Shown here one piece after another: positions 467 to 5,536 of a stretch of DNA of 17,543 nucleotides. The number at the start of each line of letters is the position of its first letter. The stretch's first letter is position 1. This stretch comes from a virus: UHGV virus genome UHGV-0153102; one strand, written 5' to 3'. Both the position numbers and the translations under genes were made by a program. The notes beneath the pieces were generated by a model. It worked only from the letters and a program-made list of their open reading frames with translations, made no database searches and was not told the DNA's origin.

Positions 467-1255
467 TCACCAGTCAAAACTTTTCACCAGCGTCAGATCG
501 CCAGCATTACGCATCGGTACAATAAATGTTTCCTGTTTCTCATTGACCGATCCTTCATCGGTGATCAGCGTCAGTTGGGCGGTGGTTAATTCCGTTTCGC
601 TGCGCCCACCATAGTAGTTGATATACACCTGATAGCGCCCGTGAATTGGCGCGGGCATGGCGAAAATCTCGGGTCCGTACCCCGTCGTGACATCCATATC
701 CAGTGCACCACTGTTTTTCAGCACGGTGTTACCGTACCAGGCGTGTTCGCCATCGGGCGTAACAACGTGAAGGTCGAGGTCGGTATTGTCCGTATCCCAC
801 GAGAGAACCAGCCGTAAACGTGCACGAATCGTTCCTGTACCCGGCGTTGAGTAAAACTGCATTTTTTGTCGGCTTTGCCCATCCGGGCTGATGACCTGCA
901 CGCTGTTGCTGCCTTCAGTGAAAATATAAGGGCGTGCAAATGAACCATCGGATTCAATTCTCTGCGGCATACTGGCACCGTTGACCACCAGCCGGCCCTG
1001 CTGAACTTTACCCGCCGCAGCATAATTCTTTATTTTGCCGCGGATCTGCGCTGAGATATTTTGATCATCTGCCATGTTGACGGACGACGCCGGGTAATTG
1101 ATCGATTGTGAAAAACTGGCATCTTCGCCCTCTGCCGGATGCCAGCCTGAGAGCGGTGCATCAATCTCGACTTCCTGCACACCTTCACTGTGAGCGACAG
1201 GCGAAAGCGCCACCAGTAACAACGTATAACCAGGTGAATCATTTGATACCGACAA
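467..1255 (-). CDS. yfaP: YfaP-like protein (DUF2135 family); native 5' end apparently lost at the prophage junction
   Basis: 262-codon minus-strand ORF. It has no ATG start; the only candidate is TTG at 1253-1255, which lies inside the first prophage end repeat. The residues after it (SPGYTLLLVALSPVAHSEG) look like a signal peptide lacking its charged N-region. Position after atoB matches the recalled K-12 order. Confidence 0.7.
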   Translation of the reverse strand: MSVSNDSPGYTLLLVALSPVAHSEGVQEVEIDAPLSGWHPAEGEDASFSQSINYPASSVNMADDQNISAQIRGKIKNYAAAGKVQQGRLVVNGASMPQRIESDGSFARPYIFTEGSNSVQVISPDGQSRQKMQFYSTPGTGTIRARLRLVLSWDTDNTDLDLHVVTPDGEHAWYGNTVLKNSGALDMDVTTGYGPEIFAMPAPIHGRYQVYINYYGGRSETELTTAQLTLITDEGSVNEKQETFIVPMRNAGDLTLVKSFDW

Positions 1256-1270
1256 GGGTTTTAGTGAAAG
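1239..1270 (+). repeat. left-end repeat copy 1 (candidate transposase end-binding site, L1 analog)
   Basis: TCATTTGATACCGACAAGGGTTTTAGTGAAAGG; shares TCATTTGATAC...GGTTTTAGT...AAGG with the copy at 1386-1417. Confidence 0.55.
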
Positions 1271-1278
1271 GAGGTGAA

Positions 1279-1312
1279 ATCACCTGTAAGATACTGAAAT
1301 AAAACAGGTGAT
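1279..1312. repeat. 9-bp perfect inverted repeat ATCACCTGT / ACAGGTGAT separated by 16 bp
   Basis: Seen directly at 1279-1287 and 1304-1312, inside the presumed prophage left end. Confidence 0.5.
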
Positions 1313-1332
1313 GGCTAGATGTGCGGATAAGG

Positions 1333-1350
1333 TCTATTTGATACCGATTG
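1333..1350 (+). repeat. left-end repeat copy 2 (shorter core ATTTGATACCGATTG)
   Basis: TCTATTTGATACCGATTG; shares the core ATTTGATACCGA with copy 1. Confidence 0.45.
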
Positions 1351-1385
1351 TGCAATAATTAGTCATTTATTATAAAATCGGCAAC

Positions 1386-1417
1386 TCATTTGATACTGTG
1401 GTTTTAGTCTTTTAAGG
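1386..1417 (+). repeat. left-end repeat copy 3 (candidate transposase end-binding site)
   Basis: TCATTTGATACTGTGGTTTTAGTCTTTTAAGG; same orientation as copy 1. Confidence 0.55.
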
Positions 1418-1470: not shown

Positions 1471-2016
1471 TTAACCCGCTTTTGGTTCTACCGCGTTAGA
1501 TTTGCGACTTCTCTCAGTTTCTTCCAAAATCTCTCTGACGCGTTCGTCAGACATACCTTCAAGCTGTAATGCAGCTATTCTTTTCCTTCCTTCTAAGCGG
1601 ATTAGATCTTGATTTTCAGGCTCTAACAACCGAGCTAAGTACTTGGCTCCATTCAGAACCAAATTTTTCGATAGCTGCTCTAAGTCTTTTTCATCAAGTG
1701 CGCTGATAATCGTCATAATTATCTTCTTGCTTTCATCTTGATTTTCCTTGATCTCACACCGATTCACTTGTGATGCATCACTGAATCCACATAGCCACTC
1801 AACACTTACTCCTTCGATAGACGCAATCTGAAGGGCGACACTTAAGGATGGCTCAGTGCCACGAGACAGATAATTGTTTAGTGTTGAAAATGAAAGCCCC
1901 CAATCTCTTGCTGCAGCTCTGACGCTGCGGGAGCCAATCAGCCTTTTCAGACGCTCAGCAATGCTTTCTTTTCTACCACCAGGAAAAGAAAGAGATGTTG
2001 TTGTTTGCTTGTTCAT
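1471..2016 (-). CDS. prophage repressor (Mu c analog) with an XRE/CI-type helix-turn-helix N-terminus and a helical C-terminal region
   Basis: 181-aa ORF divergent from ner. The motif ARDWGLSFSTLNNYLSRGTEPSLSVALQIASIEGVSVEWL fits an XRE-family HTH. No S24 peptidase-like domain is evident. Candidate RBS upstream of the ATG at 2014-2016. Confidence 0.75.
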   Translation of the reverse strand: MNKQTTTSLSFPGGRKESIAERLKRLIGSRSVRAAARDWGLSFSTLNNYLSRGTEPSLSVALQIASIEGVSVEWLCGFSDASQVNRCEIKENQDESKKIIMTIISALDEKDLEQLSKNLVLNGAKYLARLLEPENQDLIRLEGRKRIAALQLEGMSDERVREILEETERSRKSNAVEPKAG

Positions 2017-2200
2017 TTTCTTTTCTTCCTATCAATTTGAAATTATTAACTTTTAGTGTTGTCAGCAACCATTGATCCACAATAGACAAAAGAAAGATGT
2101 TTTTTTGCTTTACATGAAGCAGAAGTGGATCAATACTTATATCAAACTTGATAACTAAGTTTAGTTATCAAATTTCGTAACTTTTTAGGATAGATGAATC
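2017..2200. promoter_or_regulatory. divergent repressor/early promoter and operator region (candidate transposition enhancer equivalent)
   Basis: 184-bp AT-rich spacer between divergent genes. Contains a 24-bp palindrome TTGATAACTAA-GT-TTAGTTATCAA (2148-2171) and a 10-bp inverted pair ATTGATCCAC (2071-2080) / GTGGATCAAT (2126-2135). Confidence 0.65.
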
Positions 2201-2431
2201 ATGGCGAGAAATGAAGTTAAGCCTGATTGGCATCCTCAAAGAATTTTGGGGGAAGTCAGAGCCAGAGAAGGAAGCATGAGGGCGCTGGCCCGTAAAGCTG
2301 GCGTGGGTCAGAACAATCTGTACAACGCGGTATACCGCCATGTTCCCAAGTATGAGGGGATTATCGCGGAATGCCTGGGGGTGCCGCCCGAGGAGATTTG
2401 GCCCAGCCGCTACATTCGTAAGGTCGCGTAA
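2201..2431 (+). CDS. ner: Ner-like DNA-binding protein (Ner/Nlp family)
   Basis: 76 aa; motifs DWHPQ...LARKAGV...NNLYNA...EIWPSRY resemble Mu Ner; position is immediately upstream of the transposase gene. Confidence 0.85.
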   Translation: MARNEVKPDWHPQRILGEVRAREGSMRALARKAGVGQNNLYNAVYRHVPKYEGIIAECLGVPPEEIWPSRYIRKVA

Positions 2432-2433
2432 TT

Positions 2434-4521
2434 ATGTTTGCTTCAGTCAAAGAACTGGTTGGATTACCGGGGATGCCGGGAACGGAGCAAGGCGTTCGCT
2501 ATTCAATCAGGAAGTATGCAACCAGCGAAACCAGCAGACGCCGCAAGAAAGGCGCTAAAGGTTTTGAATACAGCATTGACTGTTTACCTGAAGTGACACA
2601 GCAGGCATTACGCGAACGTTATGCCCTGCAACTGATGACGCAAAAAGCCGATGAATCACCGGCTCCGGTGGTGACAAAGGCCAGACGCTCGTCTGCCGTG
2701 GTTGATGCGGTGGAGGCATATCGCGGATCACCACAACTGATGGTCGAACGCCTCAATGCCCTGACTGAAAACCAGCGCCAGGTGGCAGACGCACGCATTG
2801 CGATCGTCAGTGAGGTGCTGAAATTCACGCAACAACCCGGTTTCAGCTGCGCTAAAGCTATCCGGTTCATCGTTGACCGCCTGTCACACTCGCAACTGGA
2901 TGAGCGCATTGTGGCAATGGTTGAGATAGCGAACGCCAGAAAGGGAAACAGTCGCGTGTTGAGTGAAATCACGCTGAAACGCTGGATTGCGGCCTTTAAT
3001 AAGGCACAGAACGCTGCTGAACGCCTGCTTTTGCTGGCACCAGGTAAACGCCAGGAAATAAAAGCCGAAGATATTAACTGGTTGCCCGAATTTCTGGCGC
3101 AGTATCGCCAGTCAAACGGCCGACCAATGACCGAGGCTTACGAGGATTTTGTTGCCGAATGGCAGCACCGGCACGCTGATGAGCCTTATATGCTCGATAT
3201 CATGCCGTCTTATGACACCATTCGCCGCGCAATGAAGAAACTGCCGGAAGTGGTGAAACAAAAAGGACGGGTTACCGGCAGTGAATACCGCCAGCTTGAG
3301 GGATTCACGCGCCGCGACTGGTCAAAAATGCCGGTGAATTATGTCTGGATTGGTGACGGTCACGGCATGAAGCTGAAATGCGCGCACCCGGTTCACGGGC
3401 GGCCATTCGCACCGGAAGTGACCTTTGTTATCGACGGTGGCACGCGCTTTGTGGTGGGCTGGAGCCTTGACCTGGCTGAAAATGTTTTCGCCGTAGCCGG
3501 TGCCATACAGCACGGTATTCGCCATCATGGCAAACCGTTTCTGTATTACTCGGATAATGGCTCCGGGGAAACCGCCGACGTCCTGGATAAGGAGATTGTG
3601 GGGATACTGCCACGACTGGGGATTAATCACCCGACAGGGATTGCCGGTAATCCGCAGGGACGGGGCATTATCGAACGGCTTAACCGCACATTACCGATGC
3701 GCATAGCCCGTAAATACCGCACCTATTTCGGGAAAGGAGCAGATCGCGAGACGTTACGTAAAACCAACCGCGATTTACGCTCGGCATTCAGTGCCCTGCA
3801 ACAGGGCAAACGGCTGAACGCCCGGCAGCAGTCAGCGATGCGTGATTTACCGTCCTGGTCTGAACTGATTGATGCCATTCGTGACGGTGTTGAGTGGTAC
3901 AACAACCGGCCGCACGATGAATTACCCATGAAGCCGAACGGTAAACATTACAGCCCGGCGGAGTTCAGAAAAAAACGCCTGGCGGAAGAGGACACGGAAA
4001 TTGAATGGCTGTCCGATGTTGAACTGCGGGATATGTTCCGGCCGATGGTGGAGCGCCCTGTAAGACGCTGTGAAATACGCTGGCTGAATAATATTTACTA
4101 CGCGCCCGAGCTGCGTGACGAGCATGGCCGTAAGGTACTTATCAGCTATGACATTCATGATGCCGAACGAATTACCGTGCGCCGCCCGGATGGCAGCGTG
4201 ATTTGCGAGGCGGTATGGGACGGCAATAAACGCGAAGCCTTCCCTGTCAGCGCGGAATACTACAAACAGCAGCAGCGCCTTAAAGGCATGCGTAAACGCG
4301 CAGAGGAAAAAATCCGTGATGCCGAGGATGAGGTTGTCAACGTGCTGGAGCACAAGCCGCAGGAGCCCTGGCTGGAAAACATATACCGCCCTGTGGGTAA
4401 TACGGTGACCGTTCAGCAACCGGTCGCTGACGATGAACCTGATGAAGAATACGAGCGTAATTTCCAGCGGGGATTGCAGTTGCTCGAAGCGAAATTAAAA
4501 GAAAGTGATCCGCTGGCCTGA
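2434..4521 (+). CDS. Mu-type DDE transposase (MuA homolog)
   Basis: 695 aa. N-terminal Mu-type DNA-binding domain (LVGLPGMPGTEQGV...GAKGFEY). Central DDE core (WIGDGHGMKL...YYSDNGSGE). Start lies 2 nt after the ner stop. Confidence 0.9.
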   Translation: MFASVKELVGLPGMPGTEQGVRYSIRKYATSETSRRRKKGAKGFEYSIDCLPEVTQQALRERYALQLMTQKADESPAPVVTKARRSSAVVDAVEAYRGSPQLMVERLNALTENQRQVADARIAIVSEVLKFTQQPGFSCAKAIRFIVDRLSHSQLDERIVAMVEIANARKGNSRVLSEITLKRWIAAFNKAQNAAERLLLLAPGKRQEIKAEDINWLPEFLAQYRQSNGRPMTEAYEDFVAEWQHRHADEPYMLDIMPSYDTIRRAMKKLPEVVKQKGRVTGSEYRQLEGFTRRDWSKMPVNYVWIGDGHGMKLKCAHPVHGRPFAPEVTFVIDGGTRFVVGWSLDLAENVFAVAGAIQHGIRHHGKPFLYYSDNGSGETADVLDKEIVGILPRLGINHPTGIAGNPQGRGIIERLNRTLPMRIARKYRTYFGKGADRETLRKTNRDLRSAFSALQQGKRLNARQQSAMRDLPSWSELIDAIRDGVEWYNNRPHDELPMKPNGKHYSPAEFRKKRLAEEDTEIEWLSDVELRDMFRPMVERPVRRCEIRWLNNIYYAPELRDEHGRKVLISYDIHDAERITVRRPDGSVICEAVWDGNKREAFPVSAEYYKQQQRLKGMRKRAEEKIRDAEDEVVNVLEHKPQEPWLENIYRPVGNTVTVQQPVADDEPDEEYERNFQRGLQLLEAKLKESDPLA

Positions 4522-4558: not shown

Positions 4559-4603
4559 GAGGTTTCAGTCTCGGAGAATGCTGTCTCAAGCGAGGTGAAT
4601 AAT

Positions 4604-5536
4604 ATGACCGATATTAACGATGTAATCAAGACCATTGATGAACTTATTGATGGCGGCGTACTGACGCAGTATGCCATCGCCAGAGAGGCGGGAATTTCCG
4701 ACGGCACATTATCGGCTTTCCGTAAGGGAAAATATAAAGGCGATAACGCTGCTGTGGCTGCTTCCCTGCGCTCCTGGTATGAGAACTGGAATAAACAAAG
4801 CGCACTGCCGGAACCGCCGCAGTTTGTGGAAACTCAGACAGTCCAGGAGCTGCGCGCACTGTTTCAGGCGGTTCGCCTGATGGGCTGTATTAACGTTATT
4901 GTGGGCGTACCGGGTGTGGGTAAAACGGCCACTGCCCGTAATTACTGCCAGGAGCAACCAAACACCTGGATGATCACCCTGTCACCCGCGCACTCCAGCG
5001 TCACGGAGTGTCTGCTGGAGCTGGCCGATGCGCTGGGGATTGATTACACCCGCGCGAACAAAGGGGCATTATCCCGCGCCATCCGCCGTCGCCTGATGGG
5101 AACGCGTGGACTGGTGATTGTGGATGAGGCGGATCATCTTGGTATTGACGGTCTGGAGCAACTCCGGGCAATTCAGGACGCCACGGGGATCGGGATGGTG
5201 CTTATTGGTAACCCGCGCGGATTGTTTAAAGGTGGACGCCGCGCCTTTGATGATTTATCGCGCCTGTTCAGCCGTCTTGCCCGTACAAAACAACTTCGCA
5301 AGGCCAAAAAGGCGGATGTGCTGGCCATTGCCATGGCGTGGGGGATCAGTGGTGAGGCCGAGCTGGCCGTCATGCAGGCTATCGCTGAAAAGCCGGGAGC
5401 GTTACGCGTTCTGACACATACGCTTAACCAGGCGTGGCTCACCGCCAGCGGTGAAGGCGCGGCGCTGACAGAAAAACATATTAATGCGGCCTTTAAAGAG
5501 GTTTATACCAACCCTGAATTACTCTCACAGGTGTGA
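4604..5536 (+). CDS. DNA transposition protein B (MuB homolog, AAA+ ATPase)
   Basis: Walker A motif GVPGVGKT. Walker B-like VIVDEADHL. N-terminal HTH-like region. GAGGTG RBS 8 nt upstream of ATG 4604; the ORF-track start at 4595 is a GTG inside that RBS. Confidence 0.9.
   Translation: MTDINDVIKTIDELIDGGVLTQYAIAREAGISDGTLSAFRKGKYKGDNAAVAASLRSWYENWNKQSALPEPPQFVETQTVQELRALFQAVRLMGCINVIVGVPGVGKTATARNYCQEQPNTWMITLSPAHSSVTECLLELADALGIDYTRANKGALSRAIRRRLMGTRGLVIVDEADHLGIDGLEQLRAIQDATGIGMVLIGNPRGLFKGGRRAFDDLSRLFSRLARTKQLRKAKKADVLAIAMAWGISGEAELAVMQAIAEKPGALRVLTHTLNQAWLTASGEGAALTEKHINAAFKEVYTNPELLSQV

Follow-up and report, generated by a model that had tools for sequence, protein, structure and literature searches.

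An immunity repressor with an XRE/CI-type head and a Mu Repc-type C-terminal domain in a Mu-like prophage of Escherichia coli

The window described here, the whole stretch of 17,543 nucleotides analysed from virus genome UHGV-0153102, holds a Mu-like (Muvirus-type) transposable prophage of Escherichia coli, whose immunity repressor gene was characterized together with the adjoining control region. The prophage begins at position 1225, a terminus set by alignment of five left ends. From this end, the gene order is three end repeats, the repressor open reading frame (ORF) on the minus strand, a 184-bp control region, ner, the transposase gene and the MuB gene, with Gam, a late activator, endolysin and terminase further along. 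The Muvirus-type order c / ner-A-B-...-gam-...-late activator-lysis-terminase is present, with terminal transposase-binding repeats. The immunity (c-type) repressor gene (1471..2016, minus strand, 181 amino acids) was recognized from the ORF list, from its match to phrog_3037 and from its position and orientation, which are the same as those of Mu c. It is divergently transcribed from a ner homologue, a Mu-type transposase (2434..4521, plus strand, 695 amino acids) and a MuB homologue (4595-5536, downstream of the transposase). In the textbook case of phage Mu, the repressor and the transposase have a DNA-binding domain in common and compete with each other for one operator/enhancer. In the prophage of the window, repressor and transposase share no DNA-binding domain. 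The repressor is a domain chimera, with an XRE/CI head on a Mu Repc-type C-terminal domain; the DNA-binding head has been swapped.

The head is an XRE/Cro-CI helix-turn-helix (HTH) domain of five helices, encoded by codons 17-76 (1789..1968, minus strand) and delimited by Pfam, a family profile, an AlphaFold2 (AF2) model and a fold search. Its recognition helix corresponds approximately to residues 43-51 (FSTLNNYLS). In Pfam, HTH_3 (PF01381) matched residues 31-75 with an E value of 2e-4 and 21.8 bits (cut-off 23 bits), and Phage_CI_repr (PF07022) matched the repressor with an E value of 0.007 and 17.1 bits (cut-off 22). In PHROGs, the protein was assigned to phrog_3037, 'transcriptional repressor', with 4.5e-60. 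A search of 5.8 billion proteins yielded 93 repressor homologues, from Enterobacterales, which bear the names "XRE family transcriptional regulator" or "bacteriophage CI repressor" in their sources; many relatives clear both Pfam models, and relatives with 42-53% identity are among those that do. With a profile of 41 relatives, the matches in the PDB were solely XRE/CI chains (4ich, 1e-6; TP901-1 CI, 1e-3). The AF2 model (predicted local distance difference test score, pLDDT, 72) showed helices at residues 19-27, 32-39, 43-51, 58-68 and 72-75 and an N-terminal domain without strands, followed by a disordered linker and an all-helical C-terminal domain. In Foldseek, the N-terminal domain was superimposed on SinR, P22 c2, 434 Cro, ImmR and DdrO at 1.5-2.4 Å over about 60 residues, with target template modelling (TM) scores of 0.73-0.80; Mu repressor and MuA structures were absent among the 50 fold matches listed. 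The Mu DNA-binding domain PF02316 was not found in the repressor by Pfam, and BLASTP of the repressor against its own transposase gave no match. When one genome per species was taken, 32 of the 37 repressor-family loci adjoined ner, and 24 of them adjoined a Mu-type transposase too.

The transposase was identified by PF02316 and PF09299 and by phrog_310 (3.6e-211). Its residues 1-64 (2434..2625, plus strand) form a winged helix of the Mu I-alpha type, which in Mu is the enhancer-binding domain. PF02316 was detected in this N-terminus with 1.6e-8, and a profile of the transposase N-terminus matched 1TNS (MuA I-alpha) with 6e-11 and 1G4D (Mu repressor DNA-binding domain) with 9e-9. The best match of its AF2 model was also 1TNS, with a root-mean-square deviation of 1.9 Å over 65 columns and a probability of 1.00. 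The signature residues of I-alpha are conserved in the 24 loci that have the transposase. The sequence-only reading had proposed an XRE/CI-type HTH for the repressor N-terminus and a Mu-type N-terminus for the transposase, and the comparison of both N-termini by profile and by structure bears out the two assignments.

A very divergent Mu-type winged helix that had been misread as XRE was also considered for the repressor N-terminus, and it was rejected as next to impossible; no support for it was found. The predicted domain is all-helical and has no wing strands, its fold and profile matches are exclusively XRE/Cro/CI proteins, and hhalign of this domain with the Mu Repc N-terminal domain gave a probability of 0.2%. 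Under equal treatment, the transposase N-terminus does retrieve 1TNS and 1QPM.

A further member of the repressor family, P0014, has 279 amino acids, in which an HTH head of the window type and another of the O157 type stand in tandem before a single C-terminal domain. It is known from a sequencing-run assembly only, and may be either a fused repressor of double specificity or an assembly artefact.

The remaining part of the window repressor is a helical C-terminal domain (codons 94-173, 1498..1737, minus strand) that is homologous to the C-terminal, multimerisation/regulatory half of Mu Repc. Residues 94-178 matched phrog_7148 with 1.2e-4, the family to which Mu Repc itself belongs (6.9e-73), and, reciprocally, residues 90-185 of Mu Repc matched phrog_3037 with 1.1e-4; close relatives of the window protein reached 2e-10. 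In hhalign, the two C-terminal domains were aligned with a probability of 94.4% and an E value of 9e-8 over 79 columns (window residues 94-173 against Repc residues 99-180), while the cross-domain controls gave E values of 0.2-0.3. This result was obtained with an alignment limited to the C-domain type of the window; the alignment of the whole family gave 61% probability over 42 columns, a weaker value that is due to the mixture of several C-domain types in it. Pairwise BLASTP of the repressor against Mu Repc gave no match, and the kinship is visible only through profiles or through an intermediate, the Mu-type repressor of the sister prophage L052, with which the window C-domain shares 38% identity in BLASTP (E 4e-11). 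The earlier observation that the C-terminal half shows no S24 peptidase signature was correct, as PF00717 was not found by Pfam at E values up to 1, nor an S24 peptidase by NCBIfam or PHROGs; it was incomplete in that this half is homologous to the Mu Repc C-domain.

The repressor ends in the tail P-K-A-G (1474..1485, minus strand), the counterpart of K-K-A-V in Mu Repc and a candidate ClpX recognition determinant. An ending in A[G/S/V] was found in 72 of 93 XRE-family proteins and in 24 of 24 proteins of the Mu Repc family; a lysine mostly precedes it, and the commonest tail in the XRE family is K-K-A-G. The transposase, on the other hand, ends in ...LKESDPLA (4489-4521) and has no RRKKAI tail, through which ClpX recognizes MuA. 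The repressor retains a Mu-like K-A-G tail, in contrast to the transposase, from which RRKKAI is absent.

The C-terminus of Mu Repc is described as a context-dependent ClpX determinant in the literature cited in PMC10584840. By homology with Mu Repc, the C-domain and tail would place derepression under the control of a ClpXP-type protease, and not of RecA-stimulated self-cleavage. Inactivation of the repressor through the SOS response, or through an antirepressor in the manner of TP901-1 CI/MOR or P22 Ant, instead of Mu-like proteolysis, is quite unlikely. XRE repressors that lack S24 are frequently under antirepressor control, and SfMu, whose repressor is D108-like, has been reported as UV-inducible (PMC4406740); on the other hand, the repressor lacks an S24 domain, no antirepressor gene was recognized among the early genes sampled, and the C-domain and tail are of the Mu Repc type.

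The distribution of both kinds of head was studied in E. coli. The lineage whose transposase body is about 95% identical in DNA to that of the window was present in 248 of 5,426 complete genomes, with many different immunity cassettes. The sister prophage L052, from E. coli O157:H7 strain F8492 (NZ_CP038282), has a transposase that is 97% identical to that of the window over residues 101-695, and its repressor head is PF02316, 42% identical to the N-terminus of its own transposase (E 3e-14). L052 shows the classical Mu wiring. The classical Mu-type cassette was found in 14 genomes, and XRE-type cassettes overall in well over 100; the commonest of the latter, the L002 type, was present in full in 116 genomes and in part in 190. 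The full cassette of the window (1618-2549) was found in 12 E. coli genomes, and its right part only (from 2084 or 2144) in 10 more. One C-domain thus occurs on either kind of head, XRE in the large majority of genomes or Mu-type in 14 of them. When the I-alpha peptide was used to look for Mu-type repressors bearing the same head, five short fragments only were returned, and therefore an ancestral classical cassette for I-alpha-1 was not found.

Additional cassette types were observed on the same or a related backbone in L051 (E. coli strain 107) and L041, whose heads, similar to PF12844/PF13443, belong to another HTH subtype. The L041 head is joined to a C-domain of the window type and the L051 head to another C-domain type, and in each of them the -35 is surrounded by compact palindromic operators specific to that cassette.

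The exchangeable immunity cassette of the window extends over 1618..2549 and comprises repressor residues 1-133, the operators, ner and transposase residues 1-39. When the window was compared with L002, L049 and L053, the left end was 78-92% identical, no DNA similarity was detected at about 1618-2549, and identity was about 95% from 2550 on. In L002 and L053, the 78% identity extends to 1617, in the last third of the repressor gene, and in L051 and L052 the variable block reaches about 55 transposase codons. Among E. coli relatives, transposase residues 1-45 are 22-42% identical and residues 101-695 are 97-98% identical. The I-alpha domain is a part of the exchangeable regulatory block, as in Mu versus D108 (Mizuuchi et al. 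1986, as cited in PMC3820752).

The cassette divides at 2084 or 2144 into a left and a right module. L047 and L048 differ in their XRE repressors and in the DNA surrounding the -35, with a Ner that is 100% identical and the same I-alpha as the window; L002/L053 and L049 have two different repressors with one Ner-2/I-alpha-2; and L043 has a head nearly identical to that of the window, with a different Ner and I-alpha type that it shares with L045, whose repressor head differs. In these natural recombinants, one and the same combination of transposase I-alpha and Ner accompanies three XRE repressors and three box sets, all of them different. From this pattern we infer two independently assorting modules, one probably formed by the repressor head and its boxes and the other by the Ner operator, ner and the transposase I-alpha.

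The control region contains two candidate operator boxes. The left box, ATTGATCCAC (2071..2080, plus strand), is the inverse of the right box, GTGGATCAAT (2125..2134, plus strand), which is situated in the spacer of the promoter and runs into the first bases of the -10. Their arms match at 10 of 10 positions, with 54 bp from start to start; in a local inverted-repeat search none of 300 shuffles scored as high, and these are the only exact copies in the 17.5 kb. L043 retains them as TGATCCAC/GTGGATCA, 52 bp apart, and in L047 and L048, with the same ner/I-alpha and other repressors, the boxes are replaced. Comparable and significant locus-specific inverted pairs with a spacing of 46-62 bp around the -35 were found in L007, L011, L013, L014, L035 and L039.

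The early promoter (Pe-like; 2109..2137, plus strand) has the -35 TTTACA at 2109-2114, a 17-nt spacer and the -10 AATACT at 2132-2137, and its skeleton is conserved in 37 aligned control regions, mostly of different genera. Downstream of the -10 lies a 32-bp palindrome, AAACTTGATAACTAA gt TTAGTTATCAAATTT (2144..2175, plus strand), a candidate Ner operator, whose arms of 15 nt are 93% complementary and which is unique in the window. L047 and L048 keep it, apart from two or three substitutions in its centre; at loci with other Ner types, different repeats occupy this position. The ner homologue, a Cro-like early regulator (2201..2431, plus strand), was identified by PF13693 (1e-21) and phrog_769 (1.5e-24) and is 45% identical to Mu Ner. 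An A-rich element, GACAAAAGAAAG (2085..2096, plus strand), which was recognized in the 37 aligned control regions, is located between the boxes and just upstream of the -35. It is kept in most of these regions regardless of the repressor, Ner or I-alpha type, and in some loci it is present as an inverted pair, AAAAGAAAG ... TTTCTTTT, around the -35. It could act as a bend or an UP element, or else serve as an I-alpha site. Inspection of 2017-2200 by eye gave no convincing match to the integration host factor (IHF) consensus (WATCAANNNNTTR).

Two more sequence features were observed in this region. A GATC (Dam site) abuts the -10 of the early promoter (GGATC, followed directly by AATACT; window 2127-2137) and is conserved in 31 of the 37 control regions; it could couple early transcription to the methylation state, as in IS10, or be part of an operator. 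A 23-nt direct repeat with 78% identity has one copy, AAAAGAAAGAGATGTTGTTGTTT, at the 5' end of the repressor gene (1984-2006) and the other, AAAAGAAAGATGTTTTTTTGCTT, in the -35 region of the early promoter (2088-2110), and may be due to chance in T/A-rich DNA.

The natural recombinants suggest that the repressor head reads the inverted boxes ATTGATCCAC (2071-2080) and GTGGATCAAT (2125-2134). As these lie on either side of the -35 and reach the -10 of the early promoter, bound repressor would shut off ner, A and B. Co-inheritance points to the palindrome at 2144-2175 as the probable site of action of Ner. By homology with Mu Repc, the C-domain would multimerise the repressor and could bridge the boxes, 54 bp apart. 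Taken together, an immunity repressor that is an XRE/Repc chimera, with the boxes, the Ner palindrome and the two-module control as proposed here, is considered probable for this Mu-like prophage.

Several points weigh against this proposal. The repressor itself falls slightly under the Pfam HTH_3 cut-off, the consensus promoter scan alone was not above chance, the tail of the window protein is P-K-A-G and not K-K-A-V, and ClpXP dependence is extrapolated from Mu. The assignment of the boxes is based on co-inheritance over a few hundred bp, where linkage confounds, and single 10-bp boxes 54 bp apart are atypical as a dimer operator. In addition, family members with differing boxes have a recognition helix (STLNNY) that is highly conserved, which fits a conserved operator better, for example the A-rich AAAAGAAAG / TTTCTTTT. 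The conserved A-rich elements, GACAAAAGAAAG at 2085-2096 and the AAAAGAAAG/TTTCTTTT pairs of other loci, may thus act as repressor sites in place of the variable boxes or beside them; this reading is not preferred, because they do not vary with the repressor head.

If the two modules assort independently, repressor and transposase would not read the same DNA words, unlike those of Mu and D108. I-alpha may bind in the right-hand module, or at the A-rich element between the boxes, or it may bind nothing specific any longer. The suggestion in the sequence-only reading that immunity and transposition control are wired differently is indirectly supported by the lack of a shared DNA-binding domain and by the assortment of modules in the recombinants, within a limit, as steric competition might persist. 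Tentatively, and with doubt prevailing, it is proposed that in this widespread enterobacterial lineage I-alpha has been uncoupled from the lysogenic repressor and is co-inherited with Ner and the promoter-proximal leader; the enhancer would then be located in the Ner-operator module or be absent, and immunity would act on transposition only via transcription. If true, this would be a rewiring of the textbook operator/enhancer overlap of Mu. The natural allelic series, in which a classical cassette and several XRE cassettes accompany one 97%-identical transposase, would allow direct tests of what I-alpha does and how specific it is.

The position of the A-rich element between the two boxes, and its conservation across most loci, would also suit a Mu-like outcome reached by other means. 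I-alpha enhancer sites, such as GACAAAAGAAAG, would be interleaved with the boxes, and the bound and bridged repressor would block the use of the enhancer by steric occlusion, so that transposition would remain a direct target of immunity. The I-alpha domain has its homologue in MuA, and the bottom strand of the A-rich element, CTTTCTTTTGTC, resembles the CTTTT(Y)AGTAA repeats of the Mu operator region, but words of the CTTTT type are expected by chance in an AT-rich stretch. Moreover, the element is alike across different I-alpha types and cannot explain the hypervariability of I-alpha, and at L002 and L049, which are I-alpha-2 loci, it is either absent or changed. Such occlusion is regarded as possible, with a low probability.

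The coexistence of classical and XRE cassettes on one transposase backbone, and the pairing of one I-alpha type with three unrelated left modules, could also indicate that I-alpha is a relic, with a variability inherited from ancestral Mu-type cassettes such as L052. In that case the cognate enhancer sites would have been lost after XRE heads and operators replaced the left module, and transposition would be enhancer-free or dependent on a weak enhancer. Under some conditions, MuA can do without I-alpha (PMC3362531). However, the domain is intact, with its signature residues kept in the 24 transposase loci, which argues for purifying selection, and the element has clearly moved to many sites; a relic is thus judged unlikely.

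With respect to the setting of the prophage, the start of the window is E. coli chromosomal DNA, with the 3' end of a thiolase gene followed by a yfaP-like ORF. The same element was found at many unrelated insertion sites in E. coli, and all matches start at 1221-1227. The prophage left end (attL; 1225..1404, plus strand) was defined by these match starts, by its repeats and by its conservation. It contains three conserved repeats of the transposase end-binding type, (C/T)ATTTGATAC(C), at about 1239-1252, 1334-1347 and 1386-1396, and is 90-99% conserved across all immunity variants. The left terminus reads TA at 1225-1226 (TATAACCAGG...), likewise in L048, and the canonical Mu 5'-TG is present in L002, L047 and L052. 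The TA terminus was noted for the window and L048 only, and near-identical copies are present at many other E. coli sites. The yfaP-like host ORF (467-1255, minus strand) is broken by the prophage; its listed TTG start, at 1255, falls within phage DNA, and the gene is therefore truncated at the 5' end.

Repressors of the CI/XRE type at the c position of Mu-like phages have been documented with S24, in MuM16-1 and BcepMu, and without it, in B3 and the hankyphage (PMC8541194, PMC12135933), and the general point is therefore not new. For Pseudomonas Mu-like phages, it is accepted that immunity is determined by the variable genes for the repressor and ner (PMC4378225). No description of a hybrid with an XRE head and a Repc tail, of both head types on one transposase backbone or of a two-module cassette was found in the open-access full-text literature. 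Among the E. coli relatives of Mu, this hybrid is the commoner arrangement, and in enterobacteria the variant is frequent. The regulatory tail is conserved and receives different immunity heads by cassette exchange, and the wiring by a shared domain is not obligatory for a Mu-type life cycle. The near-identical prophages, including those of O157:H7 strains, constitute a natural set for asking what I-alpha recognizes and what triggers derepression, and for several hundred genes the annotation can be improved beyond "XRE family transcriptional regulator" or "hypothetical protein".

Compared with known systems, the window repressor resembles Mu Repc and D108 c in the position and orientation of its gene at the left end, divergent from ner-A-B, in its homologous C-terminal half, with a similar K-x-A-(V/G/S) tail and no S24 peptidase, and in an exchangeable immunity cassette whose extent includes the 5' end of the transposase gene, as does the Mu/D108 heterology. 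It differs from them in that their PF02316 winged helix, common to repressor and transposase, is replaced by an XRE/CI HTH. Mu and D108 have arrays of CTTTT-type sites, whereas a pair of inverted 10-bp candidate boxes is present here, and the repressor head and the transposase I-alpha of the present lineage appear to assort independently. The L052 repressor belongs to the same phage lineage and has a C-domain that is 38% identical, but its head is PF02316. A repressor with an HTH of the lambda-CI/XRE class at the c position is shared with Shewanella MuM16-1, BcepMu and the Bacteroides hankyphage (RepC_HP), and that of B3 is HTH-only. MuM16-1 and BcepMu carry an S24 peptidase and have been linked to mitomycin induction (PMC8541194), in contrast to the Mu Repc-type C-domain of the window repressor, and the tblastn similarity to these phages is mostly confined to the HTH. 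Lambda CI, P22 C2, 434 cI and TP901-1 CI have the same fold of the DNA-binding head, and TP901-1 CI is also similar in its helical, peptidase-free C-terminal part; the window repressor is distinguished by the lack of an S24 autocleavage domain and by a C-domain of the Mu family.

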